Source: a virus (taxonomy: Duplodnaviria; Heunggongvirae; Uroviricota; Caudoviricetes). Taken from it: a DNA stretch of 46,924 nt. The notes beneath the pieces were generated by a model. The model was given only the letters and a program-made list of their open reading frames with translations. It searched no databases and was not told where the DNA came from. A program made the position numbers and the translations under genes. Location: IMG/VR virus record IMGVR_UViG_2695420343_000002. One strand, 5' to 3'. The stretch's first letter is position 1. The number at the start of each line of letters is the position of its first letter. This document shows positions 1 through 46,264 of the stretch, piece after piece.

Positions 1-431
1 TGTTCTCTTCGATTTGCTCACGCTCAGCTTGGTCAATAACTCCATCAGCAGTGCCTTGCGTAAGTACTGGGAATGCTTGCCAATCCATTCTATTGACTCC
101 ATCAGCCGCTGATAATGTCCCATTGTCAATGTCATCAATGACCACCAGCGGCACAAACACCCATTACTACGACGCTATTGCATCTGTTACATGCCTGTAC
201 CACTGGCATCCTGTAAAACCATGGCCCACTCAAGTGGAAAAATTTGATCCCCACCGCTACGCAGTCTGTTATGCAATTGATCTTTTGCTGGGGTGATATC
301 ATCAGATTTATACAAACCAAGAATTTCTGCTGCTTCCTCATAGCCATGAGGTAAATCAGCAATCGTTCTTCGTATTGCTGCCACCAGCCATGCTGTTGTT
401 TATCAACTTTCCATTCAGGTTCTTTACCCAC
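1..431 (-). pseudogene. CII-like/YdaT-family early regulator, truncated at window start and frame-broken copy of 39568-40152
   Basis: Same DNA as 39715-40152 with several single-base length differences; track ORF 135-431 keeps only the first 12 residues ([12 protein letters not shown]) in the same frame. Confidence 0.45.
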
Positions 432-458
432 GGTTAATTCCTCATTTCTGTGGTGTTT

Positions 459-654
459 TTATGCCGCAGCACTGTTAGTCTTTTGATATAAAGACACGTC
501 AACTTTCAGTTTCCCGTTAGTAATTTTTCTAACTGGTACGCTCGGCCTTCAGGAATAATCTCAGGCCACTCTGAAACAGACGGATGCTTAATACCTAGGC
601 TTCGGCGGTTTTACAAACTCCGCCGAAATAATTAATCACGTCGGATTTCCGCAT
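459..654 (-). pseudogene. Cro-like (YdaS-family HTH) gene, frame-broken copy of 40180-40377
   Basis: No intact ORF here; two 1-bp length differences versus copy B (taatttttct vs taattttttct, cctaggc vs cctagggc). Confidence 0.4.
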
Positions 655-687
655 TTCTGTCTCCCGTTAAATTACGTTAAGCAGAAA

Positions 688-703
688 TGTAGGATATCCA
701 ACA
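688..703. promoter_or_regulatory. Operator-like 16-bp site TGTAGGATATCCAACA (copy of 40411-40426)
   Basis: Near-palindromic site between divergent cro-like and cI genes; same motif recurs downstream of cI. Confidence 0.45.
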
Positions 704-749
704 TACCAATGTCAAGAATCCTACATGGGCATGTGGTAGGATTGCCTAC

Positions 750-1400
750 ATGATGAACATGAGTGATCGTATTCGCCAAAGGCGAAAAGAACTGAACCTG
801 ACACAACAAGCACTGGCTGATTTGACTGGTGTGAACCGTGTCACGGTTACTGGATGGGAAAAGGACGACTACCAACCAAATGGAGCCAACCTTCAAGCCC
901 TAGCCAACGCACTTAAATGCGATCCTCTGTGGCTTGTTAGCGGAAAAGCTCGCCTGAACCAAAGATAAATCTAAAACCTGAAATATTCGCAGTTAAAAAA
1001 GTCCCCCTCATCTCGTGGTTCAGGCGGTTCATGGACAATGACGGAGCCTGGTGTCAGGAAAGAAGATGCTGAAGAGTGGGTTTATACTACCGCCCTTGTA
1101 TCAGAAATGGCATTTGCACTACGGGTCCGTGGTGATTCAATGACCAATCCCCTCGGCTCACCATCGATACCAGAAGGTTCTATCGTTATCGTAGAGCCAG
1201 ATATTATTGATACAGAGTGTATTAACGGAAAAATCGTTGTTGCCCATATCAATGGTGGGCAAGAAGCGACACTCAAAAAATTTGTTGAGGACTGGCCGAA
1301 CAGGTATCTCGTCCCACTAAATCCTAACTATAAAACTATTGAATGCGGTGAGAACTGCAGAATAGTTGGTCTTGTCAAACAAGTAATAATGGATTTTTGA
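750..1400 (+). pseudogene. CI-type prophage repressor (HTH + S24 peptidase), frame-broken copy of 40473-41126
   Basis: Track splits it into 750-968 and 1038-1400; copy B is one 217-aa ORF with the same residues. Confidence 0.55.
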
Positions 1401-1424
1401 CACATCTTCCTCACTATCGCAAAA

Positions 1425-1446
1425 CCGGGGTATCCCCGGTTTTTTT
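1425..1446 (+). terminator. Rho-independent terminator after cI (copy of 41151-41172)
   Basis: Hairpin CCGGGGTATCCCCGG followed by T7 run, 25 bp after the cI stop. Confidence 0.7.
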
Positions 1447-1463
1447 ATGAGCCTATCTTTTTA

Positions 1464-1514
1464 TGTAGGATAACCAACATAAACTCTTGACACTCACATG
1501 TTGGATATCCTACA
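1464..1514. promoter_or_regulatory. Inverted pair of operator-like sites flanking a TTGACA hexamer (copy of 41190-41240)
   Basis: TGTAGGATAACCAACA and TGTTGGATATCCTACA in inverted orientation, 18 bp apart. Confidence 0.45.
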
Positions 1515-1633
1515 TTTGTTTTTAGAGTTGTGGTGAATGCGCAGGCTGATGCGCGAAAGACATTGCAGCTATTGCGGAAAAGAGCTGTTCGGCGGGGCCA
1601 TTAAACGCCCGTATCTGGAGGTTAAAGAACAAA

Positions 1634-1909
1634 ATGAAAGTCCAGATTTTAAACAATAGTGGTGAAGTCGTTTGGTCATACGACATAGCCGCTCCTGTAG
1701 ATCAGAGCGGCGATAGCTGGACCAATGGGAAACATCAGATTATGGCTGGAGTTGTATTCTCTTTACGCCGTGCTTTGGAACAGGCTGAAGTATTTCCATC
1801 AGACCCTGAATGGAAATGGCCTTTTTCTATTTGTCCAAATTCGGAGAGCACATTTCAGAAAATTGGTCAGAAAGTCGCACTCGAAGAGCATCAGCCAACT
1901 GTTTCCTGA
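1634..1909 (+). CDS. Hypothetical protein downstream of cI (copy of 41360-41635)
   Basis: GGAGG 8 nt upstream of ATG; 91-aa ORF; no recognisable motif. Confidence 0.5.
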   Translation: MKVQILNNSGEVVWSYDIAAPVDQSGDSWTNGKHQIMAGVVFSLRRALEQAEVFPSDPEWKWPFSICPNSESTFQKIGQKVALEEHQPTVS

Positions 1910-2072
1910 TTTTTTCAGGTAACTCGTCGGCATCGCAGAAACAACAACGCTCGATCATGTTGAAAGCCGATTCGTAGAACTGTTTCTGCTGAGTGTCGCT
2001 GAGACAGGAAAAGAGCGACGTTACGATGATTTTATTAATTGCATTATCAAGTTCTTTTTCATCAAAAGTCAT
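1827..2072 (-). CDS. Hypothetical protein, convergent with and overlapping the previous ORF (copy of 41553-41798)
   Basis: AAGGA 7 nt upstream of ATG; 81-aa ORF; 83-nt 3' overlap with 1634-1909 leaves one of the two in doubt. Confidence 0.45.
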   Translation of the reverse strand: MTFDEKELDNAINKIIVTSLFSCLSDTQQKQFYESAFNMIERCCFCDADELPEKIRKQLADALRVRLSDQFSEMCSPNLDK

Positions 2073-2506
2073 TTGATTTTCCTTTTATGTATACGGGCTT
2101 AAAAGGATACCACCGAGCCTGAAGTGGTGAAAAGACAGGCACATAACAGCTAAGTATTTTCAACCAGAGAGAATCCTTAGCGTTGTGGTGAATGCGGCTC
2201 AGCGCACGCGGTTAAGGTTGAGGCTGACAGTCGACCTTCTGTGGATACCCACCCGCCTGGTGTGCAACCTTCGCCAGGCACCGGAGGCACCCGGCACCAC
2301 AACTTTATGCTGTGTGTAGTCCTCGCGGTACCAGTTTGTACACTTGCTTCCGGCTGGTACCGCTCTTTTACAAAACAGAGAAGAGCATCACCGGACGACG
2401 GGCTCATAACCCAATCCATCCGGGCGGCTGCCACCGCAGGTGTTCTTCTCTGTTTTGTGGAGAAACCAACCGACCTTGCAGGGTCGATATGATGAGGAGC
2501 AGCAAA

Positions 2507-2868
2507 ATGGCTAGCGAACGCAGTACTGATGTGCAGGCATTTATCGGGAGCTGGACGGCGGCGTATTTGAAACCAAAATCGGCGCAGTTCTCAGTGAAGT
2601 CGCTTCCGGTGTGATGAACACGAAAACCAAAGGGAAGGTCTCACTCAACCTGGAAATCGAACCATTTGATGAGAACCGTGTGAAAATCAAACACAAACTC
2701 TCATATATTCGCCCGACTAACCGCGGGAAAATTTCCGAAGAAGACACCACCGAAACGCCGATGTATGTCAATCGCGGTGGTCGCCTGACTATTCTGCAGG
2801 AAGACCAGGGACAATTACTGACTCTTGCCGGTGAACCTGACGGAAAACTCCGCGCAGCAGGTCATTAA
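2507..2868 (+). pseudogene. YfdP-like early protein, frame-broken copy of 42236-42598
   Basis: Track gives 2312-2614 and 2611-2868 in different frames; copy B has one ORF; difference is atcgggag vs atcggggag. Confidence 0.45.
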
Positions 2869-2933
2869 TATCGTTTTTAATAAACTGATTATTTATCTCA
2901 TCACTGAATATTTTTATATAGTGAGGACTTATT

Positions 2934-3758
2934 ATGTCTCAGAACTTAGACGCAACCGCAATTAATCAAATCCATGCCCTTATTTCTGCTCAGGGTGTTA
3001 ATGAAATTATCAGTAAGATTGGTGCCGATGCTGTGGCATTGCCTGAGAATTTCCGCATTCATGATCTGGAAAAATTTAATTTAAATCGCTTCCGTTTCCG
3101 TGGTGCGCTTTCCACTGCCAGCATCGATGACTTTACCCGTTATTCTAAAGATCTTGCAGATGAAGGCACCCGCTGCTTTATCGATGCTGATAATATGCGT
3201 GCCGTCAGTGTGCTTAACCTGGGTACTATTGATGAACCAGGTCACGCAGATAACACCGCCACACTCAAACTGAAAAAGACAGCACCGTTCTCTGCTCTGT
3301 TGTCTGTTAACGGCGAGCGTAACTCCCAGAAATCACTGGCAGAATGGATTGAAGACTGGGCCGACTACCTTGTGGGCTTTGATGCTAATGGTGACGCCAT
3401 TCAGGCAACAAAAGCGGCTGCGGCAATCCGTAAAATCACGATTGAAGCAAACCAGACCGCTGATTTTGAAGATAATGACTTCAGCGGCAAACGCTCCCTG
3501 ATGGAATCTGTCGAAGCGAAGACCAAAGACATTATGCCAGTGGCATTTGAATTTAAATGCGTTCCGTTTGAAGGTCTGAAAGAACGTCCGTTTAAATTAC
3601 GCCTCAGCATTATCACTGGCGATCGTCCTGTACTGGTTCTGCGCATTATTCAGCTGGAAGCAGTGCAGGAAGATATGGCTAACGAATTTCGTGATCTGCT
3701 TGTTGAGAAATTCAAAGACAGCAAAGTAGAAACCTTTATTGGTACTTTCACCGCCTGA
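2934..3758 (+). CDS. YfdQ-like phage early protein (274 aa)
   Basis: Intact 274-aa ORF; length and position after a YfdP-like gene match the KplE1 yfdPQRS block as I recall it. Confidence 0.75.
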
Positions 3759-3885
3759 TTTCATTACTGCAAATGCCCCTGCGGGGGCATTTATGGAAAC
3801 GTAATTAACTCAATAATCACCGGATGGTGAGGGCTTCCTTTTACCCAAACTCAGCGCGGTGCAGCGCATATACGTGGAGAACAAA

Positions 3886-4422
3886 ATGTCATTTATTAAA
3901 ACTTTTTCCGGGAAGCATTTTTATTATGACAGGATAAATAAAGACGACATCGATATTAACGATATCGCGGTTTCTCTTTCAAATATCTGTCGCTTTGCCG
4001 GTCATCTTTCGCACTTCTACAGCGTCGCCCAACATGCGGTTCTTTGCAGCCAGCTGGTGCCGCAGGAATTTGCTTTTGAAGCGTTAATGCATGATGCAAC
4101 AGAAGCGTATTGCCAGGACATTCCCGCACCACTGAAACGCCTTCTTCCTGACTATAAACAAATGGAAGAAAAAATAGACTCCGTAATCCGTGAGAAATAC
4201 GGATTACCCCCAGTTATGAGTACGCCCGTGAAATATGCCGATCTCATCATGCTGGCAACCGAACGCCGCGATCTCGGGCTTGATGATGGCTCTTTCTGGC
4301 CTGTACTGGAAGGTATCCCGGCAACAGAGATGTTCAACGTGATTCCACTGGCACCGGGCCATGCCTACGGGATGTTTATGGAACGCTTTAACGAGTTATC
4401 GGAGTTACGCAAATGCGCATGA
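3886..4422 (+). CDS. HD-domain phosphohydrolase (YfdR-like)
   Basis: H..H and HD motifs (SVAQHAV, ALMHDATEAY); ATG at 3886 has GGAGA 6 nt upstream; track start 3859 is a GTG. Confidence 0.75.
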   Translation: MSFIKTFSGKHFYYDRINKDDIDINDIAVSLSNICRFAGHLSHFYSVAQHAVLCSQLVPQEFAFEALMHDATEAYCQDIPAPLKRLLPDYKQMEEKIDSVIREKYGLPPVMSTPVKYADLIMLATERRDLGLDDGSFWPVLEGIPATEMFNVIPLAPGHAYGMFMERFNELSELRKCA

Positions 4423-4775
4423 ATGTTTTCGAAATGGAAGGGTTTCTTCGTGGGAGATGTGTACCGCGAGATCTGAAAGTAAATGAAACAGATGCTGAAT
4501 ACCTGGTGCGTAAATTCGATGCGCTTGAAGCTAAATGTGCAGCACAGGAAAACAAAGTAATACCAGTGTCAACTGAACTGCCACCAGCAAATGAAAGTGT
4601 TTTGTTATTCGATGCTAACGGAGAAGGCTGGCTAATTGGCTGGCGTTCTCTCTGGTACACCTGGGGACAAAAAGAAACCGGAGAATGGCAGTGGACATTT
4701 CAGGTCGGGGACCTTGAAAACGTCAATATCACTCACTGGGCAGTAATGCCAAAAGCACCGGAGGCTGGAGCATAA
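4413..4775 (+). CDS. DUF551-like protein (YfdS-like)
   Basis: 120 aa; C-terminal W-rich region ending NITHWAVMPKAPE resembles the DUF551 signature. Confidence 0.65.
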   Translation: MRMNVFEMEGFLRGRCVPRDLKVNETDAEYLVRKFDALEAKCAAQENKVIPVSTELPPANESVLLFDANGEGWLIGWRSLWYTWGQKETGEWQWTFQVGDLENVNITHWAVMPKAPEAGA

Positions 4776-5353
4776 TGACCACTTTTACTGACAAAGAACT
4801 GATTAAAGAAATTAAAGAGCGTATCAGCAGCCTTGACGTGCGAGACGATATTGAGCGCCGTGCTTATGAAATTGCACTGGCATCACTGGGAGCAGAACCT
4901 GTAAGCCAAACTTACAACTTGCCAGAATTAATCGAAGGCATGGAGGTTTCCATTGATGTAAGCACTTGTGATGCGGATTTAGGTAATCGCTATTTCGGTA
5001 CCGTCACCGAGGCGTTAGAACTTGATACTGCCAAGAATGGTTACATCCTCCTGGTTCAGGACGCAGAGCCAAACTTCGATATAAATGGCAACTCTCCGGT
5101 AACTCCGGATGGTTGGGTCATGGTGCCGAAGAAACTAACCGCTGAGAACGGCGCTAAGGGTGTGCTATCCGGTGAATTTTCAGAAACTACGTTTATAAGC
5201 TGCCCGGAATGCTTTGGCGATGATGATTGCGATACCTGCGACGGGAGCGGACGTATTGAAATTAAAGTGCCAGTCACGTGGTCGACCATAAAATCTATCT
5301 GGGATAAAGGTATCGAGTATTTTGCAGCAAAACCATCACAAGAGGTGAAGTGA
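4775..5353 (+). CDS. Hypothetical protein with C-terminal zinc-finger (CPEC...CDTCDGSG)
   Basis: 192-aa ORF; start overlaps previous stop (ATGA); CxxC plus CxxCxGxG motif. Confidence 0.65.
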   Translation: MTTFTDKELIKEIKERISSLDVRDDIERRAYEIALASLGAEPVSQTYNLPELIEGMEVSIDVSTCDADLGNRYFGTVTEALELDTAKNGYILLVQDAEPNFDINGNSPVTPDGWVMVPKKLTAENGAKGVLSGEFSETTFISCPECFGDDDCDTCDGSGRIEIKVPVTWSTIKSIWDKGIEYFAAKPSQEVK

Positions 5354-5925
5354 TGAACAACTTAATGATCGACCTTGAGACGATGGGGAAAAATAAGGAT
5401 GCACCGATCGTTTCCATTGGCGCGGTGTTCTTTACCCCAGAAACCGGTGACATCGGACAAGAATTCTATGCGGTTGTCAGCCTGGACAGTGCTATGAAGC
5501 AAGGAGCTACACCTGACGGCGATACCATCCTGTGGTGGTTGAAACAGAGCCCTGAAGCACGAGCTGCAATCTGTATTGATGATACTTTATCGATCAGCGA
5601 TGCACTCTCTGAATTGAGTCATTTCATTAATCAGCATGCAGACAATATAAAATATTTAAAAGTCTGGGGTAACGGGGCCACCTTCGACAACGTAATTTTA
5701 CGTGGAGCTTACGAGCGAGCAGGACAAATCTGCCCGTGGGCGTACTGGAATGACCACGATGTACGCACGATCGTTACGCTTGGGCGTTCCATCGGATTCG
5801 ACCCCAAAATGGACATGCCTTTCGATGGCGAACGGCACAACGCCCTGGCTGATGCCCGTCATCAGGCAAAATATGTTTCCGCTATCTGGCAGAAATTAAT
5901 TCCTGCCACCAGCACAGAATTATGA
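5350..5925 (+). CDS. DEDDh-type 3'-5' exonuclease
   Basis: MIDLETMG (D-x-E) near the N-terminus and H-x4-D near the C-terminus (HNALADARHQ). Confidence 0.7.
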   Translation: MMNNLMIDLETMGKNKDAPIVSIGAVFFTPETGDIGQEFYAVVSLDSAMKQGATPDGDTILWWLKQSPEARAAICIDDTLSISDALSELSHFINQHADNIKYLKVWGNGATFDNVILRGAYERAGQICPWAYWNDHDVRTIVTLGRSIGFDPKMDMPFDGERHNALADARHQAKYVSAIWQKLIPATSTEL

Positions 5926-5961
5926 TTTTCCCGGGTGCAGCCGGTTTTGATGGAGAAAATT

Positions 5962-6243
5962 ATGAACACCTTGTTTTTACTGATGGCTGAATTCAATACC
6001 CCAAACATTGAACTCTCAGCAGTTAGCCAAAAGTACTTTGGTATGAGTCCAGCCACGGCAGAAGCAAAAGCAAACGCTTGTAAGTTGCCCGTTCCAACAT
6101 ATCGCATCGGCACATCACAAAAAGCAAAACGTTGCATCAATATTCAAGATCTTGCGGAATACATAGACAAAAGGCGAGAAGAAGGACGTATCGAGTGGGA
6201 ACAGGTCAGAACAGTCAAACAGAAGGACAAAGAACATCACTAA
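5962..6243 (+). CDS. Excisionase-like DNA-binding protein (TorI/PrtN-like)
   Basis: Small protein starting MNTLFLLMAEF; last gene before the int junction; GGAGA 7 nt upstream of ATG at 5962. Confidence 0.5.
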   Translation: MNTLFLLMAEFNTPNIELSAVSQKYFGMSPATAEAKANACKLPVPTYRIGTSQKAKRCINIQDLAEYIDKRREEGRIEWEQVRTVKQKDKEHH

Positions 6244-6273
6244 AGAAAAAACCCGCCTGAAGGCGGGTTTTCA
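6243..6273. terminator. Bidirectional rho-independent terminator
   Basis: ACCCGCC-TGAA-GGCGGGT hairpin flanked by an A-run and a T-run, between convergent genes. Confidence 0.7.
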
Positions 6274-6290
6274 AAAAGCACCAGCTATGA

Positions 6291-6464
6291 TCATGCTGCT
6301 TTGCGACGACGAAGCTTACCCTGCTGCTCTTTACCAGAGACAGTAGCGTGAGTGAACGCATTAGGAGCAGCCTTCATCAGAACTTCAACAGCAGCACCCA
6401 TACCTGCGAATGCTTTCATTGTGTCGAACTTAACCTGTGGCTTGGTTGCTTTTTGATCTTTCAT
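6291..6464 (-). CDS. Small basic protein, 57 aa, hypothetical (below track cutoff)
   Basis: Translated by hand: MKDQKATKPQVKFDTMKAFAGMGAAVEVLMKAAPNAFTHATVSGKEQQGKLRRRKAA; GGGAG 8 nt upstream of ATG. Confidence 0.5.
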   Translation of the reverse strand: MKDQKATKPQVKFDTMKAFAGMGAAVEVLMKAAPNAFTHATVSGKEQQGKLRRRKAA

Positions 6465-6535
6465 AGAAAACTCCCGAGACAGTAAAGGCGTCTCTAACCC
6501 TTTCTTTAAAGCTAGCTTGTTTCGCTAACTTATGC

Positions 6536-6556
6536 CAATCGATCATGTCGATTGGT
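6536..6556. promoter_or_regulatory. Palindrome CCAATCGA-N5-TCGATTGG upstream of the small ORF
   Basis: Perfect 8-bp inverted arms, 5-bp spacer, about 70 bp upstream of the 6464 start codon. Confidence 0.4.
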
Positions 6557-6660
6557 GACATCGTTTCTTAGTAGTTTAAGCACAAAACGACTGCCATAGA
6601 TGTACCTTTAAGGTAATCTGGACGGGTATCCTACAATTTGTAGACCCTTCTCGTCTATAC

Positions 6661-7197
6661 CTACTGAGCAAATTTAAGAAAGATATCCTGCAGCTCATCA
6701 ATGACTGCCGACATCACATAACCGCACTGTTCCATGCGGAAACCAAAAGACTCGTAATACTGCACCAGTTCTGGTACTGGCTCTACAATGTGGACAACTT
6801 TACATTCAACAGCTTTACAAAATATAAAAGCACTCATAAGAGTGAGTAAAACCATGCGCCCTTTCAATGGGTGAGATTCATCTTCTCTAGAAAACCTTTC
6901 GATCATATGGATACGAAAGATGTTTTCTTCAACCCCATAAACACAAATTGCTGCTCCTGATGGTATTCCCTGAACCCGACCTTGCTGAACAAGTTTTATG
7001 CAGAACTCATACTTTTCTCTGGAGTTGCCATAGGTACTTAACGCATAGTCCCATTCAAGCTCACCATAGCCACCACACAGAATCTTGTAATCATCATCAC
7101 TGAGCGGACCAACAGCAAGAGGTAAGCCGACATGATCAATAATCAACTGGATATTGTTACGTACTGATTGACCTATCTCGTCCAGGGTAAGCATCAT
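6661..7197 (-). CDS. Putative GNAT-fold N-acetyltransferase (accessory gene)
   Basis: 178-aa ORF; C-terminal YYESFGF resembles the GNAT motif; looks AT-rich by eye; no search run. Confidence 0.5.
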   Translation of the reverse strand: MMLTLDEIGQSVRNNIQLIIDHVGLPLAVGPLSDDDYKILCGGYGELEWDYALSTYGNSREKYEFCIKLVQQGRVQGIPSGAAICVYGVEENIFRIHMIERFSREDESHPLKGRMVLLTLMSAFIFCKAVECKVVHIVEPVPELVQYYESFGFRMEQCGYVMSAVIDELQDIFLKFAQ

Positions 7198-7533
7198 GGC
7201 CTCTCAAGCGGAACACTAAAAGTCGCATTATATCTCATTCTTAAGCCGCGTATGGATTACACCTTGAAATGAAAACGCCGGGTTCCCAATAGGCTCCCAC
7301 AGAGTGTATAACTGCTTGTTTTTCAACAACGGTACATCCTATCAAGCATAGGAGCAATGCTAAACCGAGAATTCCAGTAAACACCAGTTTTTTCAGGCAT
7401 CACGCTGGTTTGATTAATTTTTTGTGTTTCATGATTATCGTGCATTTTTGAACATTTCAGGCTATTTTTCTCGCGTTAGGTTCCCGCACAGGTTCCCACG
7501 TTTTATGGGAACCCGAAATAACGAGGTCGTGTA
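7198..7533. other. Noncoding region upstream of int with GGTTCCC repeats; candidate attP or integrase arm-site region
   Basis: GGTTCCC appears three times in direct orientation plus once inverted (GGGAACC) within 60 bp of the int start. Confidence 0.3.
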
Positions 7534-8631
7534 ATGGCGTACTATAACATAGAGAAACGACTAAAATCCGATGGCACACCACGCTATCGCTGTAATGTGA
7601 TTATCAAAGAAAAAGGTGTTATCACTTACAGGGAAAGCAAAACATTCCCTAAACATGCTCATGCCAAAACATGGGGCACACAGAAAGTGATGGAATTAGA
7701 TCTATATGGCATTCCATCATCAAATGCAGTTGACGGACTTACAGTCCGTGACTTACTACACAAATATTTAAATGACCCAAATGCCGGAGGTAAAGCAGGC
7801 CGTACTAAAAGATATGTGCTGGAACTGCTTATGGATAGTGACATCTCCGCGATCAAACTATCTGAACTGACAGAAAATGACGTAATTGAACATTGCAGGC
7901 TAAGAAACAACGCTGGTGCAGGTCCTGCAACAGTCAGCCACGATGTTAGTTATCTTGGCAGTGTTCTGGATGCGGCCAAACCTGTATACGGAATTAATTA
8001 CACATCAAACCCGGCGAAAAGCGCTCGCCCATATCTACTTAAACTTGGTTTGATTGGTAAATCAAACCGTCGTAATCGTAGACCAGCATCTGATGAACTG
8101 GACATGCTCATTGCAGGCCTTCAACAACGATCTACTCATAAATGCTCAAAAATTCCGTTCGTTGATATCCTCAAATTTTCTGTATGGTCCTGTATGCGAA
8201 TCGGAGAAGTATGCCGGTTACGATGGGAAGATCTCGACCAGGAACAAAAATCTATACTCGTAAGAGACAGGAAAGATCCACGCAAAAAGGAAGGTAACCA
8301 CATGAAAGTAGCCTTGCTTGGGGAAGCCTGGGATATCGTCCAACGACAGCCCCAAAAATCGGAATTCATTTTTCCATATAACAGCACTTCTGTTACTGCG
8401 GGATTTCAGAGAGTAAGAAGCAAATTAGGTATTAAGGATCTGCGATACCATGATTTGCGTAGAGAAGGGGCAAGTCGCTTATTTGAGGCTGGTTTTAGTA
8501 TTGAGGAAGTCGCCCAAGTTACAGGGCATCGTTCATTAAACGTGCTATGGCAGGTATATACCGAACTGTATCCGAAATCTTTACATAATCGTTTTGAAGA
8601 GCTCCAAAGGAGCAGAAATAAGACCTCTTGA
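7534..8631 (+). CDS. int: Tyrosine-type phage integrase
   Basis: 365 aa; RYHDLRREGAS box and GHRS...VLWQVYTELY tyrosine region; ACGAGG upstream of ATG. Confidence 0.9.
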   Translation: MAYYNIEKRLKSDGTPRYRCNVIIKEKGVITYRESKTFPKHAHAKTWGTQKVMELDLYGIPSSNAVDGLTVRDLLHKYLNDPNAGGKAGRTKRYVLELLMDSDISAIKLSELTENDVIEHCRLRNNAGAGPATVSHDVSYLGSVLDAAKPVYGINYTSNPAKSARPYLLKLGLIGKSNRRNRRPASDELDMLIAGLQQRSTHKCSKIPFVDILKFSVWSCMRIGEVCRLRWEDLDQEQKSILVRDRKDPRKKEGNHMKVALLGEAWDIVQRQPQKSEFIFPYNSTSVTAGFQRVRSKLGIKDLRYHDLRREGASRLFEAGFSIEEVAQVTGHRSLNVLWQVYTELYPKSLHNRFEELQRSRNKTS

Positions 8632-8692: not shown

Positions 8693-8941
8693 ATGCGTAT
8701 TGAAATCTGCATAGCCAAAGAAAAAATGACTAAAATGCCAACCGGTGCTGTGGATGCGTTAAAGGAAGAATTAACCCGACGCATCAGTAAGCGTTATGAC
8801 GATGTTGAGGTGTTAGTAAAAGCCACCAGCAATGATGGCCTTTCTGTTACACGCACCGCAGATAAGGATTCTGCAAAAACTTTTGTTCAGGAGACTCTGA
8901 AAGATACCTGGGAATCTGCTGACGAGTGGTTTGTTCACTAA
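8693..8941 (+). CDS. dinI: DinI-family protein
   Basis: 82 aa; [11 protein letters not shown]...[11 protein letters not shown] aligns by eye with E. coli DinI along its length; GGAGGG RBS. Confidence 0.85.
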
Positions 8942-9194
8942 TAAACACGTAAAATCTGTAACGGCTGGAAATCATTCAATACTCGCACTATCGAAAGTTC
9001 ACCAGCCAACCGCAGCGCGTTCTTGCATACGACGTGGCTGCGGTCTCAACTCCGTCCCCCACCAATCATGATTGGGCAGTACCAGTACAGCACTAGTAAA
9101 AACTGGAAATAAGCAGTCTCAGCAAAATACCGGCCAGACGGTGAGAAGACAAAAAAGATACGCAAAGTAGCCGCGGCCCTTAGTGACATGAAAT

Positions 9195-9214
9195 CCCGCT
9201 ATACGGGCTTTTTT
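9195..9214 (+). terminator. Weak terminator-like hairpin plus T-run
   Basis: CCCG-CTATA-CGGG then C TTTTTT; only a 4-bp stem. Confidence 0.3.
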
Positions 9215-9289
9215 GTATCTGCACACGATTGATTATTAGGTCCGTATAGCTAATAGTGGTCTTAACCTACATATAGAATCAGAGACTTT

Positions 9290-9985
9290 ATGAAAAAGGA
9301 AATACTCAAGGCTCTTTGCCCTACATGCGGTGGGTTACGTAACTGCACTGTGCATGGGAAGCTAACCACTAGCTGGGAGGATTCCCAATATCCAGTTTAT
9401 GGGTACCATTACCATCACCTACTCCAATGCAATGGCTGTGATACTGTCTTCTATCACCACAACGAACACTTCAGTGAGCATACTACCCACGAATATCGTG
9501 ATGGTGAATTTGTAGAAACGCCTATAGATATGATCACTACCTATCCTGCCGCTGAAACATTTCAAGCTCCGATATGGTTATCCAAGCTTGAATCAGTTGA
9601 TCGTCAGCTCTTTCAAATATTTAATGAAATGTATTCTTCATATACTTCTGACCATTTCATTCTTTCGTCCATCGGTTTACGGACGATTTTTGATCGAACT
9701 GCTGAACTGTTACAAATTCACCCCGGTTTGCCGCTTGGTGAAAAAGTTGAAAAATTAAAACAAGATGGAGTCATAGGCGACACTGAGGCATGCGTTATAT
9801 CTTCAGTAATTGATGCAGGAAACGCCGCCGCACATCGCAGTTGGAGCCCGAATAAAAGTGAGTTCGAACAAATGCTAGAAGCTATAGAAAGTTTTGTCCA
9901 AAGAACTATCTTGGGCAAAAAATCACTTGAACATATAACCAAACAACTCCCACCTCGGGTTACAAGACCTAAAAATAGTGCATAA
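9290..9985 (+). CDS. Zinc-ribbon plus DUF4145-like domain protein (candidate accessory or defence gene)
   Basis: N-terminal CPTCGG...C..H...CNGC; C-terminal GLRTIFDRTAELL...LGEKVEKLKQDGVI...IDAGNAAAHRS fits my recollection of DUF4145; AT-rich by eye. Confidence 0.55.
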   Translation: MKKEILKALCPTCGGLRNCTVHGKLTTSWEDSQYPVYGYHYHHLLQCNGCDTVFYHHNEHFSEHTTHEYRDGEFVETPIDMITTYPAAETFQAPIWLSKLESVDRQLFQIFNEMYSSYTSDHFILSSIGLRTIFDRTAELLQIHPGLPLGEKVEKLKQDGVIGDTEACVISSVIDAGNAAAHRSWSPNKSEFEQMLEAIESFVQRTILGKKSLEHITKQLPPRVTRPKNSA

Positions 9986-10011
9986 TCCGCGATCATCAAT
10001 GTGGCGTAAGG

Positions 10012-10604
10012 CTATGGTTTACTTGCTACAGGGAATTTTTTATACACCGTTGAAATACCCAGATCATAAATCAGTGCGACTTGCTGCTGATATATTCCCG
10101 ATTCAATCAACCTGCCAGCCTGCCCCCATTGTTCTACTGTCAGCTTTGGCTTTCGCCCACCGTTCCTCCCTTCTTGTCGTGCTGCGGCAAAGCCGCCCTA
10201 GTACGTTCGACAATAAACTCTCGCTCCATTTCAGCCAGGGCACCCATCACATGAAAGAAAAAGCGCCCCATTGGTGTGCTGGTATCAATAGCATCCGTCA
10301 GGCTGCGAAAATTAACGCCACGTTCGCGCAACTCTTCCACCAGCACGACAAGATGCCGCATACTGCGCCCCAGTCGGTCCAGTTTCCAGACCACCAGCGT
10401 GTCACCTGCCGATAATGTCCTGAGCAGCTTTTTCAGTCCTGGTCTGTCGGACTTTGTACCGCTTATCTTGTCTTCAAAAATCAGCTCACATCCTGCACAG
10501 TTCAACGCATTACGTTGTAGATCGGTGTTCTGGTCATTTGTTGATACGCGAACATAGCCAATAAGCATGATTGCTCCTCCTGACAAAAACAGGAACGATG
10601 CCAT
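10012..10604 (-). CDS. Pin/Gin/Hin-family DNA invertase, frame-broken
   Basis: N-terminal MLIGYVRVSTNDQNTDLQRNAL catalytic domain (track 10140-10604); the HTH tail GRNGGRKPKLTVEQW...STVYKKFP is in another frame down to 10012; shift lies in a G-run near 10186-10199. Confidence 0.7.
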
Positions 10605-39571: not shown

Positions 39572-40152
39572 GCGTTAGTTTCTCCACAACCAGAAGCAAT
39601 CGACGCCACGACGCCCGGAGCTGCACACTCGCGGGCGTTACTCTTTTCCGGCGCACAAAAAACACGAAATAACAGTGTTAAATGCTCCTGCCACTTCGCC
39701 ATTACTTGGTAGCTGTTCTCTTCGATTTGCTCACGCTCAGCTTGGTCAATAACTCCATCAGCAGTTGCCTTGCGTAAGTACTGGGAATGCTTGCCAATCC
39801 ATTCTATTGACTCCATCAGCCGCTGATTAATGTCACCATTGTCAATGTCATCAATGACCACCAGCGGCACAAACACCCCATTACTACGACGGGCTATTGC
39901 ATCTGTTACATGCCTGGTACCACTGGCATCCTGTAAAACCATGGCCCACTCAAGTGGAAAAATTTGATCCCCACCGCTACGCAGTCTGTTATGCAATTGA
40001 TCTTTTGCTGGGGTGATATCATCAGATTTATACAAACCAAGAATTTCTGCTGCTTCCTCATAGCCATGAGGTAAATCAGCAATCGTTCTTCGTATTGCTG
40101 CCACCAGCCATGCTGGTTGTTTATCAACTTTCCATTCAGGTTCTTTACCCAC
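39568..40152 (-). CDS. CII-like / YdaT-family early regulatory protein (putative)
   Basis: 194 aa directly downstream of the cro-like gene in the rightward early operon; call is by position and family recollection. Confidence 0.45.
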
Positions 40153-40179
40153 GGTTAATTCCTCATTTCTGTGGTGTTT

Positions 40180-40377
40180 TTATGCCGCAGCACTGTTAGT
40201 CTTTTGATATAAAGACACGTCAACTTTCAGTTTCCCGTTAGTAATTTTTTCTAACTGGTACGCTCGGCCTTCAGGAATAATCTCAGGCCACTCTGAAACA
40301 GACGGATGCTTAATACCTAGGGCTTCGGCGGTTTTACAAACTCCGCCGAAATAATTAATCACGTCGGATTTCCGCAT
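40180..40377 (-). CDS. Cro-like HTH protein (YdaS family)
   Basis: 65 aa; GGVCKTAEALGIKHPSVSEW pattern; divergent from cI across an operator-rich spacer. Confidence 0.75.
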   Translation of the reverse strand: MRKSDVINYFGGVCKTAEALGIKHPSVSEWPEIIPEGRAYQLEKITNGKLKVDVSLYQKTNSAAA

Positions 40378-40404
40378 TTCTGTCTCCCGTTAAATTACGT
40401 TAAG

Positions 40405-40475
40405 CAGAAATGTAGGATATCCAACATACCAATGTCAAGAATCCTACATGGGCATGTGGTAGGATTGCCTACATG
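40405..40475. promoter_or_regulatory. Operator cluster between the cro-like gene and cI
   Basis: TGTAGGATATCCAACA at 40411-40426; inverted AATCCTACA/TGTGGTAGGATT at 40439-40465; GTAGGATTGCCTACA abutting the cI start. Confidence 0.5.
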
Positions 40476-41126
40476 ATGAACATGAGTGATCGTATTCGCC
40501 AAAGGCGAAAAGAACTGAACCTGACACAACAAGCACTGGCTGATTTGACTGGTGTGAACCGTGTCACGGTTACTGGATGGGAAAAGGACGACTACCAACC
40601 AAATGGAGCCAACCTTCAAGCCCTAGCCAACGCACTTAAATGCGATCCTCTGTGGCTTGTTAGCGGAAAAGGCTCGCCTGAACCAAAGATAAATCTAAAA
40701 CCTGAAATATTCGCAGTTAAAAAAGTCCCCCTCATCTCGTGGGTTCAGGCGGGTTCATGGACAATGACGGAGCCTGGTGTCAGGAAAGAAGATGCTGAAG
40801 AGTGGGTTTATACTACCGCCCTTGTATCAGAAATGGCATTTGCACTACGGGTCCGTGGTGATTCAATGACCAATCCCCTCGGCTCACCATCGATACCAGA
40901 AGGTTCTATCGTTATCGTAGAGCCAGATATTATTGATACAGAGTGTATTAACGGAAAAATCGTTGTTGCCCATATCAATGGTGGGCAAGAAGCGACACTC
41001 AAAAAATTTGTTGAGGACTGGCCGAACAGGTATCTCGTCCCACTAAATCCTAACTATAAAACTATTGAATGCGGTGAGAACTGCAGAATAGTTGGTCTTG
41101 TCAAACAAGTAATAATGGATTTTTGA
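40473..41126 (+). CDS. cI: CI-type prophage repressor (HTH_XRE + S24 LexA-like peptidase)
   Basis: 217 aa; LTQQALADLTGVNRVTVTGWE HTH; VRGDSMTNPLG Ser motif and K in LKKF for autocleavage. Confidence 0.9.
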   Translation: MMNMSDRIRQRRKELNLTQQALADLTGVNRVTVTGWEKDDYQPNGANLQALANALKCDPLWLVSGKGSPEPKINLKPEIFAVKKVPLISWVQAGSWTMTEPGVRKEDAEEWVYTTALVSEMAFALRVRGDSMTNPLGSPSIPEGSIVIVEPDIIDTECINGKIVVAHINGGQEATLKKFVEDWPNRYLVPLNPNYKTIECGENCRIVGLVKQVIMDF

Positions 41127-41150
41127 CACATCTTCCTCACTATCGCAAAA

Positions 41151-41172
41151 CCGGGGTATCCCCGGTTTTTTT
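41151..41172 (+). terminator. Rho-independent terminator after cI
   Basis: CCGGGGTATCCCCGG hairpin followed by T7. Confidence 0.75.
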
Positions 41173-41189
41173 ATGAGCCTATCTTTTTA

Positions 41190-41240
41190 TGTAGGATAAC
41201 CAACATAAACTCTTGACACTCACATGTTGGATATCCTACA
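41190..41240. promoter_or_regulatory. Second operator pair downstream of cI, flanking a TTGACA hexamer
   Basis: TGTAGGATAACCAACA at 41190-41205 and TGTTGGATATCCTACA at 41225-41240, inverted relative to each other. Confidence 0.5.
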
Positions 41241-41359
41241 TTTGTTTTTAGAGTTGTGGTGAATGCGCAGGCTGATGCGCGAAAGACATTGCAGCTATTG
41301 CGGAAAAGAGCTGTTCGGCGGGGCCATTAAACGCCCGTATCTGGAGGTTAAAGAACAAA

Positions 41360-41635
41360 ATGAAAGTCCAGATTTTAAACAATAGTGGTGAAGTCGTTTG
41401 GTCATACGACATAGCCGCTCCTGTAGATCAGAGCGGCGATAGCTGGACCAATGGGAAACATCAGATTATGGCTGGAGTTGTATTCTCTTTACGCCGTGCT
41501 TTGGAACAGGCTGAAGTATTTCCATCAGACCCTGAATGGAAATGGCCTTTTTCTATTTGTCCAAATTCGGAGAGCACATTTCAGAAAATTGGTCAGAAAG
41601 TCGCACTCGAAGAGCATCAGCCAACTGTTTCCTGA
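41360..41635 (+). CDS. Hypothetical protein downstream of cI (exclusion-gene position)
   Basis: GGAGG RBS; 91 aa; no motif recognised. Confidence 0.5.
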   Translation: MKVQILNNSGEVVWSYDIAAPVDQSGDSWTNGKHQIMAGVVFSLRRALEQAEVFPSDPEWKWPFSICPNSESTFQKIGQKVALEEHQPTVS

Positions 41636-41798
41636 TTTTTTCAGGTAACTCGTCGGCATCGCAGAAACAACAACGCTCGATCATGTTGAAAGCCGATTCG
41701 TAGAACTGTTTCTGCTGAGTGTCGCTGAGACAGGAAAAGAGCGACGTTACGATGATTTTATTAATTGCATTATCAAGTTCTTTTTCATCAAAAGTCAT
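41553..41798 (-). CDS. Hypothetical protein, convergent with and overlapping the previous ORF
   Basis: AAGGA RBS; 81 aa; overlaps the neighbour by 83 nt. Confidence 0.45.
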   Translation of the reverse strand: MTFDEKELDNAINKIIVTSLFSCLSDTQQKQFYESAFNMIERCCFCDADELPEKIRKQLADALRVRLSDQFSEMCSPNLDK

Positions 41799-42235
41799 TT
41801 GATTTTCCTTTTATGTATACGGGCTTAAAAGGATACCACCGAGCCTGAAGTGGTGAAAAGACAGGCACATAACAGCTAAGTATTTTCAACCAGAGAGAAT
41901 CCTTAGCGTTGTGGTGAATGCGGCTCAGCGCACGCGGGTTAAGGTTGAGGCTGACAGTCGACCTTCTGTGGATACCCACCCGCCTGGTGTGCAACCTTCG
42001 CCAGGCACCGGGAGGCACCCGGCACCACAACTTTATGCTGTGTGTAGTCCTCGCGGTACCAGTTTGTACACTTGCTTCCGGCTGGTACCGCTCTTTTTAC
42101 AAAACAGAGAAGAGCATCACCGGACGACGGGCTCATAACCCAATCCATCCGGGCGGCTGCCACCGCAGGTGTTCTTCTCTGTTTTGTGGAGAAACCAACC
42201 GACCTTGCAGGGTCGATATGATGAGGAGCAGCAAA

Positions 42236-42598
42236 ATGGCTAGCGAACGCAGTACTGATGTGCAGGCATTTATCGGGGAGCTGGACGGCGGCGTATTTGA
42301 AACCAAAATCGGCGCAGTTCTCAGTGAAGTCGCTTCCGGTGTGATGAACACGAAAACCAAAGGGAAGGTCTCACTCAACCTGGAAATCGAACCATTTGAT
42401 GAGAACCGTGTGAAAATCAAACACAAACTCTCATATATTCGCCCGACTAACCGCGGGAAAATTTCCGAAGAAGACACCACCGAAACGCCGATGTATGTCA
42501 ATCGCGGTGGTCGCCTGACTATTCTGCAGGAAGACCAGGGACAATTACTGACTCTTGCCGGTGAACCTGACGGAAAACTCCGCGCAGCAGGTCATTAA
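42236..42598 (+). CDS. YfdP-like early protein (120 aa)
   Basis: GAGGAG 8 nt upstream of ATG at 42236; the longer track ORF from 41918 is a read-through of the leader. Confidence 0.6.
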   Translation: MASERSTDVQAFIGELDGGVFETKIGAVLSEVASGVMNTKTKGKVSLNLEIEPFDENRVKIKHKLSYIRPTNRGKISEEDTTETPMYVNRGGRLTILQEDQGQLLTLAGEPDGKLRAAGH

Positions 42599-42663
42599 TA
42601 TCGTTTTTAATAAACTGATTATTTATCTCATCACTGAATATTTTTATATAGTGAGGACTTATT

Positions 42664-43488
42664 ATGTCTCAGAACTTAGACGCAACCGCAATTAATCAAA
42701 TCCATGCCCTTATTTCTGCTCAGGGTGTTAATGAAATTATCAGTAAGATTGGTGCCGATGCTGTGGCATTGCCTGAGAATTTCCGCATTCATGATCTGGA
42801 AAAATTTAATTTAAATCGCTTCCGTTTCCGTGGTGCGCTTTCCACTGCCAGCATCGATGACTTTACCCGTTATTCTAAAGATCTTGCAGATGAAGGCACC
42901 CGCTGCTTTATCGATGCTGATAATATGCGTGCCGTCAGTGTGCTTAACCTGGGTACTATTGATGAACCAGGTCACGCAGATAACACCGCCACACTCAAAC
43001 TGAAAAAGACAGCACCGTTCTCTGCTCTGTTGTCTGTTAACGGCGAGCGTAACTCCCAGAAATCACTGGCAGAATGGATTGAAGACTGGGCCGACTACCT
43101 TGTGGGCTTTGATGCTAATGGTGACGCCATTCAGGCAACAAAAGCGGCTGCGGCAATCCGTAAAATCACGATTGAAGCAAACCAGACCGCTGATTTTGAA
43201 GATAATGACTTCAGCGGCAAACGCTCCCTGATGGAATCTGTCGAAGCGAAGACCAAAGACATTATGCCAGTGGCATTTGAATTTAAATGCGTTCCGTTTG
43301 AAGGTCTGAAAGAACGTCCGTTTAAATTACGCCTCAGCATTATCACTGGCGATCGTCCTGTACTGGTTCTGCGCATTATTCAGCTGGAAGCAGTGCAGGA
43401 AGATATGGCTAACGAATTTCGTGATCTGCTTGTTGAGAAATTCAAAGACAGCAAAGTAGAAACCTTTATTGGTACTTTCACCGCCTGA
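42664..43488 (+). CDS. YfdQ-like phage early protein (274 aa)
   Basis: Identical translation to 2934-3758. Confidence 0.75.
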
Positions 43489-43615
43489 TTTCATTACTGC
43501 AAATGCCCCTGCGGGGGCATTTATGGAAACGTAATTAACTCAATAATCACCGGATGGTGAGGGCTTCCTTTTACCCAAACTCAGCGCGGTGCAGCGCATA
43601 TACGTGGAGAACAAA

Positions 43616-44152
43616 ATGTCATTTATTAAAACTTTTTCCGGGAAGCATTTTTATTATGACAGGATAAATAAAGACGACATCGATATTAACGATATCGCGG
43701 TTTCTCTTTCAAATATCTGTCGCTTTGCCGGTCATCTTTCGCACTTCTACAGCGTCGCCCAACATGCGGTTCTTTGCAGCCAGCTGGTGCCGCAGGAATT
43801 TGCTTTTGAAGCGTTAATGCATGATGCAACAGAAGCGTATTGCCAGGACATTCCCGCACCACTGAAACGCCTTCTTCCTGACTATAAACAAATGGAAGAA
43901 AAAATAGACTCCGTAATCCGTGAGAAATACGGATTACCCCCAGTTATGAGTACGCCCGTGAAATATGCCGATCTCATCATGCTGGCAACCGAACGCCGCG
44001 ATCTCGGGCTTGATGATGGCTCTTTCTGGCCTGTACTGGAAGGTATCCCGGCAACAGAGATGTTCAACGTGATTCCACTGGCACCGGGCCATGCCTACGG
44101 GATGTTTATGGAACGCTTTAACGAGTTATCGGAGTTACGCAAATGCGCATGA
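43616..44152 (+). CDS. HD-domain phosphohydrolase (YfdR-like)
   Basis: Identical to 3886-4422; H..H and HD motifs. Confidence 0.75.
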   Translation: MSFIKTFSGKHFYYDRINKDDIDINDIAVSLSNICRFAGHLSHFYSVAQHAVLCSQLVPQEFAFEALMHDATEAYCQDIPAPLKRLLPDYKQMEEKIDSVIREKYGLPPVMSTPVKYADLIMLATERRDLGLDDGSFWPVLEGIPATEMFNVIPLAPGHAYGMFMERFNELSELRKCA

Positions 44153-44505
44153 ATGTTTTCGAAATGGAAGGGTTTCTTCGTGGGAGATGTGTACCGCGAG
44201 ATCTGAAAGTAAATGAAACAGATGCTGAATACCTGGTGCGTAAATTCGATGCGCTTGAAGCTAAATGTGCAGCACAGGAAAACAAAGTAATACCAGTGTC
44301 AACTGAACTGCCACCAGCAAATGAAAGTGTTTTGTTATTCGATGCTAACGGAGAAGGCTGGCTAATTGGCTGGCGTTCTCTCTGGTACACCTGGGGACAA
44401 AAAGAAACCGGAGAATGGCAGTGGACATTTCAGGTCGGGGACCTTGAAAACGTCAATATCACTCACTGGGCAGTAATGCCAAAAGCACCGGAGGCTGGAG
44501 CATAA
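44143..44505 (+). CDS. DUF551-like protein (YfdS-like)
   Basis: Identical to 4413-4775. Confidence 0.65.
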   Translation: MRMNVFEMEGFLRGRCVPRDLKVNETDAEYLVRKFDALEAKCAAQENKVIPVSTELPPANESVLLFDANGEGWLIGWRSLWYTWGQKETGEWQWTFQVGDLENVNITHWAVMPKAPEAGA

Positions 44506-45083
44506 TGACCACTTTTACTGACAAAGAACTGATTAAAGAAATTAAAGAGCGTATCAGCAGCCTTGACGTGCGAGACGATATTGAGCGCCGTGCTTATGAA
44601 ATTGCACTGGCATCACTGGGAGCAGAACCTGTAAGCCAAACTTACAACTTGCCAGAATTAATCGAAGGCATGGAGGTTTCCATTGATGTAAGCACTTGTG
44701 ATGCGGATTTAGGTAATCGCTATTTCGGTACCGTCACCGAGGCGTTAGAACTTGATACTGCCAAGAATGGTTACATCCTCCTGGTTCAGGACGCAGAGCC
44801 AAACTTCGATATAAATGGCAACTCTCCGGTAACTCCGGATGGTTGGGTCATGGTGCCGAAGAAACTAACCGCTGAGAACGGCGCTAAGGGTGTGCTATCC
44901 GGTGAATTTTCAGAAACTACGTTTATAAGCTGCCCGGAATGCTTTGGCGATGATGATTGCGATACCTGCGACGGGAGCGGACGTATTGAAATTAAAGTGC
45001 CAGTCACGTGGTCGACCATAAAATCTATCTGGGATAAAGGTATCGAGTATTTTGCAGCAAAACCATCACAAGAGGTGAAGTGA
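44505..45083 (+). CDS. Hypothetical protein with C-terminal zinc-finger (CPEC...CDTCDGSG)
   Basis: Identical to 4775-5353. Confidence 0.65.
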   Translation: MTTFTDKELIKEIKERISSLDVRDDIERRAYEIALASLGAEPVSQTYNLPELIEGMEVSIDVSTCDADLGNRYFGTVTEALELDTAKNGYILLVQDAEPNFDINGNSPVTPDGWVMVPKKLTAENGAKGVLSGEFSETTFISCPECFGDDDCDTCDGSGRIEIKVPVTWSTIKSIWDKGIEYFAAKPSQEVK

Positions 45084-45655: not shown

Positions 45656-45691
45656 TTTTCCCGGGTGCAGCCGGTTTTGATGGAGAAAATT

Positions 45692-45973: not shown

Positions 45974-46003
45974 AGAAAAAACCCGCCTGAAGGCGGGTTT
46001 TCA
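45973..46003. terminator. Bidirectional rho-independent terminator
   Basis: Same hairpin as 6243-6273. Confidence 0.7.
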
Positions 46004-46020
46004 AAAAGCACCAGCTATGA

Positions 46021-46194: not shown

Positions 46195-46264
46195 AGAAAA
46201 CTCCCGAGACAGTAAAGGCGTCTCTAACCCTTTCTTTAAAGCTAGCTTGTTTCGCTAACTTATG

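Follow-up and report, generated by a model that had tools for sequence, protein, structure and literature searches.

The closest described relatives, in function, of the locus examined here are the GNAT/ribbon-helix-helix (RHH) type II toxin-antitoxin (TA) systems TacAT, AtaRT, KacAT, ItaRT and GmvAT. In these systems the antitoxin is an RHH/DUF1778 protein, its gene lies upstream of the toxin gene and overlaps it, and the toxin carries the acetyl-CoA loop Q/RxxGxG/A. The locus is a two-gene cassette at positions 6244–7197 of the window, by which is meant the whole 46,924-nt stretch of DNA analysed (IMG/VR virus record IMGVR_UViG_2695420343_000002, Caudoviricetes). On the minus strand it comprises a gene for a GNAT-fold protein (6661–7197), a structured spacer or leader of 196 nt between the two genes (6465–6660) and a gene for a basic partner protein of 57 amino acids (6291–6464). 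The cassette appears to work like the GNAT TA pairs but is not one of them: the toxins show no sequence similarity to its enzyme, whose corresponding loop reads HPLxGxM; there is no ORF upstream of the enzyme gene within the cassette that could encode an RHH/DUF1778 antitoxin; and the order is reversed, the 57-amino-acid, single-helix partner being encoded downstream after a spacer of 78–197 nt in the loci compared.

Two other groups of TA systems share parts of this design. The toxin-first operons higBA, hicAB and mqsRA are like the cassette in that the presumed toxin comes first and the small gene downstream has promoter-like elements, but differ from it in that the cassette's partner has no helix-turn-helix (HTH) or other DNA-binding domain. 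The antitoxins that are labile to ClpXP or Lon resemble the partner, which is disordered and has a tail like the MuA ClpX degron RRKKAI, and may be labile as well. The cassette also resembles phage morons and the cargo of prophage hotspots, such as the P2 gpA-gpQ old/tin position and att-proximal ends. Like them it forms an autonomous unit that ends in a terminator of its own and may have its own promoter. Phages that are otherwise nearly identical may carry it, lack it or have other cargo in its place, and it occupies an att-proximal end, a Q-lysis slot and the P2 gpA-gpQ position. It differs from the described hotspot systems in that it matches no PADLOC 2.0 model and goes unmentioned in PMC9122126 and PMC13586616. 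Literature searches by accession, by peptide string, for mEp460 and for GNAT toxins with small proteins returned nothing on these genes, and both proteins are annotated as hypothetical.

The region is very probably a dedicated two-gene mobile cassette. The reading favoured for it is a toxin-antidote or phage-defence pair made up of a GNAT-fold enzyme and a small partner, with a probability of about 0.4. This reading draws among other things on the strict pairing of the two genes, their movement among phage hotspots and the one-sided loss of the enzyme gene.

Pairing and mobility of the cassette

From genomes, viral contigs and metagenomes 141 loci with a GNAT-like homologue were gathered. A homologue of the small ORF lies 78–197 bp downstream on the same strand in 140 of these, the lone exception being at a contig edge, and the pairing holds as identity of the GNAT-like protein falls from 100% to 39%. 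The preliminary description of this DNA, made from its letters alone, had proposed a small partner gene; it is an obligate neighbour, and no locus among the 140 with room for it has the GNAT-like gene without it.

The pair is found in at least five phage settings, and its relatives extend across the Enterobacterales and into Shewanella. In E. coli and Salmonella it stands at the dusA-side, att-proximal end of prophages. It lies between DUF968/Q-like genes and the holin gene in lambdoid prophages of Enterobacter and Edwardsiella, inside a myovirus tail module in Photorhabdus, and at a prophage end in Shewanella. P2-like prophages of E. coli carry a version about 43% identical, flanked by gpA/DinI and the portal gene (loci L236–L240, approximately 3367–4180 in each); this is the gpA-gpQ old/tin position of P2, a defence hotspot (PMC9122126, PMC13586616). 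In the P2-type version the spacer is 79 nt long and includes a TGcTACAAT box framed by a palindrome, with a stem-loop ahead of the Shine-Dalgarno (SD) sequence. The small protein of this version is listed in 1731 blocks of an assembly index. Among 5426 complete E. coli genomes the GNAT allele is present in 358, including many O157:H7, and the small ORF in 562.

This variable presence at different positions is that of a moron, as is the possession of a terminator. A bidirectional intrinsic terminator with an 11-bp stem and a T-run (6247–6272) closes both the cassette and the neighbouring xis gene, and an equivalent terminator is found 3' of the small ORF in most other contexts. In one E. coli O157:H7 strain, 2149 (locus L003, 1–6514), the cassette, with both genes intact, is part of a decayed, mosaic remnant of a prophage, in which the tail-tip and DUF2303 genes are partial and a methyltransferase gene is a pseudogene.

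Replacement and loss of the GNAT-like gene

In many E. coli prophages integrated at dusA, a SocA/Panacea-domain protein and a 128-amino-acid protein replace the GNAT-like gene and the spacer. The 57-amino-acid gene is intact in these prophages, and homology resumes exactly at its SD sequence. Panacea-type cargo occupies the slot at 4570–5558 of locus L004, at 3605–4593 of L002 and in L143–L145, the second protein being 128–139 amino acids long, and the pair is likely a PanAT-type TA system. L145 has a further insertion, a gene for a CoiA-like nuclease, between the small ORF and xis. The presence of this pair in the slot of related prophages bears out the earlier proposal that the cassette is accessory rather than conserved backbone. 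Relatives of the Panacea pair, 69–84% identical to it, lack the small ORF. What remains beside the newcomer is therefore a remnant of the GNAT cassette rather than the newcomer's partner; on the same evidence the assignment of the small gene as a Panacea-pair partner or as a backbone gene was rejected.

A comparable exchange is seen in Shewanella baltica (L241, 1610–4174), where, at the prophage end that elsewhere in Shewanella bears the cassette, a 269-amino-acid protein and a HEPN-like 129-amino-acid protein replace the GNAT-like gene and the small ORF is kept. The junctions of both replacements fall just 5' of the SD sequence of the small ORF and just 3' of a GAGAC/GTCTC stem-loop described below. 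Just upstream in L241 is a canonical TacA1 and GNAT toxin pair, whose layout contrasts with that of the cassette; several TA-like modules are stacked at this locus. In Photorhabdus temperata (L026) the GNAT-like gene is a frameshifted pseudogene and the small ORF is intact.

The GNAT-like gene has thus been lost three times independently, in E. coli, in Shewanella and in L026, with the small ORF kept each time, and the reverse is never seen. A further candidate loss, in L238, was rejected: the gene calls suggested a truncated GNAT-like gene, but the DNA encodes a full-length ORF. One-sided loss is what one would expect of an enzyme that does harm when its partner is missing.

The GNAT-fold protein

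The 178-amino-acid ORF, the 196-bp spacer with its perfect palindrome and the 57-amino-acid basic ORF are all located where the preliminary description had placed them. Translation from the first ATG, at 7197, gives 178 amino acids. The second ATG, at 7194, is most likely the true start, judging by the SD sequence GAGAGG 5 nt away, by homologues that begin MLTLDEIG and by the length of 177 amino acids in most public records.

That the product is GNAT-like had been suggested from its C-terminus, and fold comparison confirms a GNAT fold, with a mixed alpha/beta core of the order beta1-alpha1-alpha2-beta2-4-alpha3-beta5-alpha4-beta6. Foldseek matches include AtaT and KacT, and a fold search of BFVD matched generic viral GNATs only. 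The fold by itself singles out no target. In profile searches Pfam and NCBIfam gave no match for the GNAT-fold protein at E ≤ 1, nor any for ten of its distant relatives at E ≤ 0.1; the 57-amino-acid protein matched nothing in Pfam, NCBIfam or PADLOC; a sequence search of the PDB found nothing for either protein; and PHROGs placed them in families of unknown function (phrog_4350 and PHROG 2741, respectively). The family to which this GNAT-fold protein belongs is unannotated and small, with 92 relatives at E ≤ 1e-3 in a profile search of 1.84 billion protein representatives.

Invariant residues include H97 and E100 on beta4 and Y148-x-x-x-G152-F153 in alpha4. Y148 aligns with the FY of a TacT-like protein and appears to occupy the usual position of the general-acid tyrosine, so that a conserved catalytic tyrosine is predicted. 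The loop between beta4 and alpha3 reads H109-P-L-K-G-R-M115, and its H, P, L, G and M are invariant in 30 homologues. The protein is acidic, with a pI of 4.8.

The small basic protein

The small ORF is a real gene under coding selection, as the preliminary description had supposed: its median pairwise dN/dS is 0.16, and it is conserved in sequence and in synteny. The protein has a pI of 10.5 and a net charge of about +7.6. Homologues range from 98% down to about 31% identity and keep a central helix, AF..MG.A...L..AAP, and a basic tail whose last residues are KAA, KAVA or QAA. No lysine is invariant across the family, and the GK motif is GR in Shewanella. The AlphaFold2 (AF2) model consists of a single helix, residues 15–32, with disordered, low-confidence basic tails (pLDDT 60). 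Neither a Pfam search nor the AF2 model reveals an HTH, RHH or other recognisable DNA-binding domain.

The C-terminus reads LRRRKAA, and its conserved versions are RRRKAA, KKAVA and RQAA. The C-terminal ClpX degron of MuA is RRKKAI, known as C-motif 2 (PMC8138137, PMC12723719). By its residues the tail of the small protein resembles a degron of the MuA type.

The spacer and its palindrome

The sense strand of the spacer is predicted to fold with −58 kcal/mol (z = −3.5) and the antisense strand with −51 kcal/mol. No Rfam family matches the cassette region, where there are sub-threshold, terminator-driven matches only. Comparison of 16 diverged Enterobacteriaceae spacers reveals a conserved structure in which 92.4% of cells are paired, a value that none of 500 shuffled controls reaches; the figure is 86.6% in the shuffles and 11–44% with slid partners.

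Directly 3' of the GNAT stop codon is a putative promoter-like pair, TAGACG-N18-TAGGAT (6628–6657, minus strand, as are all elements of the spacer). TAGAC and TA.GAT are invariant in the 16 spacers, score below the threshold of a consensus promoter scan and have equivalents in the Photorhabdus, Xenorhabdus and P2-type cassettes. Next comes a hairpin, TTACCTT-AAAGGTA (6603–6616), whose arms TTAC and GGTA are conserved in the 16 relatives while the loop varies, and which RNAalifold also reports as a helix. The palindrome (helix 1) and a second hairpin (helix 2) follow. Last, a GAGAC-N9-GTCTC stem-loop (6471–6494) abuts GGGAG, the SD sequence of the small gene. This stem, with A-to-G wobble substitutions, recurs in each of the 16 Enterobacteriaceae spacers, and different stems stand at the equivalent position in the Photorhabdus, Xenorhabdus and P2-type cassettes.

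The palindrome, CCAATCGA-TCATG-TCGATTGG (6535–6555), is a perfect 8-N5-8 repeat, overlaps with its 3' arm a −35-like TTGGCA (6533–6538) and is the sole copy in the genome of about 39.7 kb. A perfect palindrome with 8-nt arms and a loop of 3–8 nt occurs in 1.7% of shuffled spacers, so that taken alone it is mildly unusual; it is accepted as real because it is conserved in relatives. In the 16 relatives 95% of the cells of helix 1 are paired, and its loop varies in sequence at constant length. Helix 2, AAGTTAGC-N7-GCTAGCTT (6509–6531), has a 3' arm that includes a −10-like TAGCTT (6509–6514), and three of its six pairs have changed on both sides. The palindrome is most readily seen as an RNA stem-loop of the small gene's leader or of a bicistronic transcript, a reading that may fit at least as well as a DNA operator. 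It is favoured because the substitutions in the palindrome are mostly wobble-compatible and because the neighbouring hairpin covaries.

The preliminary description had offered an operator of the cassette as one reading of the palindrome. In that case a dimeric regulator, possibly the small protein itself, would bind CCAATCG-N7-CGATTGG and control a promoter of the small gene, and this is a tentative possibility. The arms are conserved in sequence and the 7-nt centre varies at fixed length in the closest clades, as would suit a binding site. The 3' arm of helix 1 has an invariant TTGG.A, with an invariant TA...T 18 nt downstream of it, so that the palindrome would overlap a −35 box, and the P2-type cassette has another palindrome, GCGCAG..CTGCGC, bracketing its extended −10 box TGcTACAAT. 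Several observations speak for RNA instead. The left arm is CTGATTG in five relatives of one clade, and these three changes break the DNA symmetry yet keep RNA pairing through G-U. On the sense strand 19 cells are G-U wobbles versus 6 unpaired, the predicted fold of the sense strand is more stable than that of the antisense strand, and covariation of the adjacent helix 2 is unexpected for a promoter spacer. The small protein, moreover, has no recognisable DNA-binding fold, and the genome has no second site. The perfect palindrome of the earlier account stands, and its role as the cassette's own operator is doubtful even though its 3' arm meets a −35-like box.

A half-site of the palindrome had been said to recur at 9062–9075. 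The sequence CCAATCATGATTGG, a unique 14-bp palindrome, is indeed present there, between the DinI-like and DUF4145 genes, and was considered as a second operator site. It was rejected as unrelated, being absent from 142 of 142 related loci, mEp460 among them.

For the GNAT-fold gene a candidate −10 box of the cassette's own promoter, TATAAT (7227–7232, minus strand), lies 29 nt upstream of the ATG at 7197 and 32 nt upstream of that at 7194. The accompanying −35 box is weak, and the site is missing from the output of the consensus scan; a TAnAAT-type box stands at a similar distance 5' of the GNAT-like start in most unrelated contexts.

Location of the cassette in the prophage

The window represents a circular genome of about 39.73 kb in which an overlap of 7.19 kb is written twice, 1–7194 being the same as 39731–46924. 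Owing to this terminal overlap the cassette appears again, incomplete, at 45974–46924. Enterobacteria phage mEp460 is 98.7–99.2% identical across the cassette region, and the prophage is an mEp460-like prophage of E. coli.

On the circular map the cassette is flanked by xis, a PrtN/excisionase-like gene (5935–6243, plus strand), and by int (7534–8631, plus strand), with 1290 bp from the end of the former to the start of the latter. The preliminary description had regarded it as interrupting a xis-int module. Comparison of this junction in lysogens leads to a different view. The region is matched from xis through window position 7448 in 356 complete E. coli genomes, and beyond 7448 these genomes have a feature annotated as a truncated tRNA-dihydrouridine synthase, the host dusA, adjoining the cassette. 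The phage carries a surrogate dusA 5' end, a 40-codon ORF (7323–7445, minus strand) that marks the boundary between cassette and attachment site. When attP is aligned with two lysogen junctions, host-specific differences extend to GATAGGATGTACC and phage sequence follows; the crossover is therefore placed at about 7340–7346, within this ORF. The opposite end of one of these prophages has a full-length hybrid dusA, oriented divergently from int and followed by pspG and qorA. The phage integrates into the 5' end of dusA, and attP, with the surrogate dusA end, lies between the cassette and int. Because of this position xis and int are at opposite ends of the prophage in the lysogen.

In the lysogen the two minus-strand cassette genes adjoin the attachment site, just within the prophage end on the dusA side. 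The junctions, with a truncated dusA beside the cassette, thus uphold the earlier claim that it sits in a moron position at the prophage end. The host dusA promoter and a 35-codon dusA remnant precede the cassette genes on the same strand, and a terminator scan predicts no terminator between the remnant and these genes. In the lysogen, transcription starting at the host dusA promoter could also reach the cassette.

Elements with dusA-specific integrases and this architecture have been described (Farrugia et al. 2015, PMC4482086). They too integrate into the 5' end of dusA with int abutting the attachment site, carry a replacement dusA 5' end, and bear cargo at the opposite end beside the displaced dusA fragment. 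The likeness concerns the vehicle and not the cassette, and it is this architecture that gives xis and int the appearance of an interrupted module on the circular map. The map is thus corrected: the phage is a dusA integrator, and hence the cargo beside its xis comes to lie near the attachment site, in the same orientation as the host dusA promoter.

The 88-bp divergent region between the surrogate dusA end and int contains a perfect inverted repeat (7491–7513) and repeated GGTTCCC motifs, further copies of which are found near 7274 and 7478. The repeat and the motifs are candidate binding sites for Int and Xis or candidate promoter elements of the hybrid dusA. On the int side of the prophage are a DinI-like gene (8693–8941), a gene for a DUF4145 protein (9290–9985; PHROG 1305, "DNA binding protein") and a Hin-like invertase ORF (10140–10604, minus strand); the genes of 8693–10604 may be further accessory cargo. 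The small RNA sRNA-17, 193 nt long and regulated by ArcA, is encoded in an mEp460-like prophage of E. coli K1 RS218 (PMC7719688). Its 5' part has an exact match about 4 kb from the cassette, at about 2334–2363 (minus strand), and again at 42062–42091. Identity of sRNA-17 with the 196-nt spacer was rejected, its sequence mapping to 2334–2363.

Discussion

If the two genes form a toxin-antidote or defence pair, the cassette would run from its own weak promoter through the GNAT-fold acyltransferase, a structured spacer probably containing a second promoter, and the 57-amino-acid protein to the terminator. The enzyme would act on a target in the cell, plausibly a part of the translation machinery, and modify it. 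The small protein would be made separately, would probably be short-lived, and would bind the enzyme and neutralise it. A cassette of this kind could stabilise the prophage, or abort or exclude competing phages.

Apart from the one-sided loss, this interpretation is supported by the nature of the cargo that elsewhere holds the GNAT slot, which is of TA type (Panacea in E. coli, HEPN-like in Shewanella). It is also supported by the properties of the partner, a one-helix protein with disordered basic tails and a degron-like C-terminus, and by the pairing of an acidic enzyme (pI 4.8) with a basic partner (pI 10.5). Every clade conserves promoter-like boxes 3' of the GNAT stop codon and a stem-loop next to the SD sequence, features that fit a separate and higher expression of the antidote, as in toxin-first TA systems.

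A number of observations weigh against this interpretation. The enzyme has no sequence similarity to TacT or AtaT: a family profile aligned by hhalign with a TacT-like protein gave a probability of 5.6%, with the YxxxGF motif as the sole aligned part. The invariant HPLxGxM takes the place of the canonical acetyl-CoA loop Q/RxxGxG/A (motif A), and since this loop is conserved but non-canonical the acyl donor is uncertain. The partner, downstream and with no DNA-binding domain, is unlike the known antitoxins of GNAT toxins. No candidate promoter passes the consensus scan, conservation being the one argument for them, and PADLOC 2.0 matches neither protein, nor the P2-hotspot versions. The asymmetry of loss is based on only three independent events, and about 200 E. 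coli genomes maintain an intact orphan small ORF, which could serve a function of its own.

Three other explanations of the pair were considered. The GNAT-fold protein may be a host-takeover or anti-defence enzyme that acetylates a host or competitor protein, with the small protein as its cofactor, specificity subunit or expression regulator. The anti-CRISPR protein AcrVA5 acts in this way, acetylating such a protein to the prophage's benefit. A GNAT fold in phage accessory slots, the commonness of phage GNAT-fold proteins in BFVD, and a structured leader with a palindrome upstream of the small gene would all suit such an enzyme. This explanation is nevertheless unlikely, as it does not account for the survival of the small gene alone in two distant lineages or for the absence of loci with the enzyme alone, the small protein shows neither an HTH nor another fold of a regulator, and the slot otherwise holds TA-type cargo.

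Alternatively, the enzyme might acylate or acetylate the small protein, at its N-terminus or at a lysine, the modified peptide being the active effector, a membrane-active factor or a regulator. The cassette would then resemble the gene pairs of an acyltransferase with a pro-toxin, or the tailoring enzymes of ribosomally synthesised and post-translationally modified peptides (RiPPs). Loss of such a pair should be joint or symmetric, yet every loss seen is of the enzyme, with the small gene left intact. There is no family-wide invariant lysine, the lysine of GK being arginine in Shewanella, and the small gene seems to own a promoter and persists behind unrelated TA cargo. An enzyme and its substrate are for these reasons an improbable pair here. 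That the genes are unrelated neighbours, the small ORF being prophage backbone beside xis and the GNAT-like gene interchangeable cargo, would agree with the constancy of small ORF, terminator and xis beside changing upstream cargo in the dusA prophages of E. coli and in Shewanella, but is largely refuted, since the pair travels together to contexts free of xis (late region, tail module, P2 hotspot), both genes are present in 140 of 140 loci with room, down to 39% identity, and diverged relatives of the Panacea pair have no small ORF.

With the toxin-antidote or phage-defence pair retained as the preferred reading, a fuller picture can tentatively be drawn. The cassette would belong to an undescribed two-gene family in which a GNAT enzyme with the HPLxGxM loop is checked by a protease-labile, single-helix basic protein of about 57 amino acids, expressed from its own promoter through a structured leader. 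Such a family would hop between defence hotspots, P2 gpA-gpQ among them, and a displaced cassette would leave behind an orphan antidote, perhaps conferring immunity against related cassettes. The cassette is widespread, unannotated and directly testable, and a specialist may not find it very surprising. If this reading is true, it would add a new type of partner and a new gene order to those of the GNAT toxins and would represent a new candidate defence system. It would also provide a natural example in which the toxin has been swapped and the antidote kept, in two distant lineages and at the same junction.

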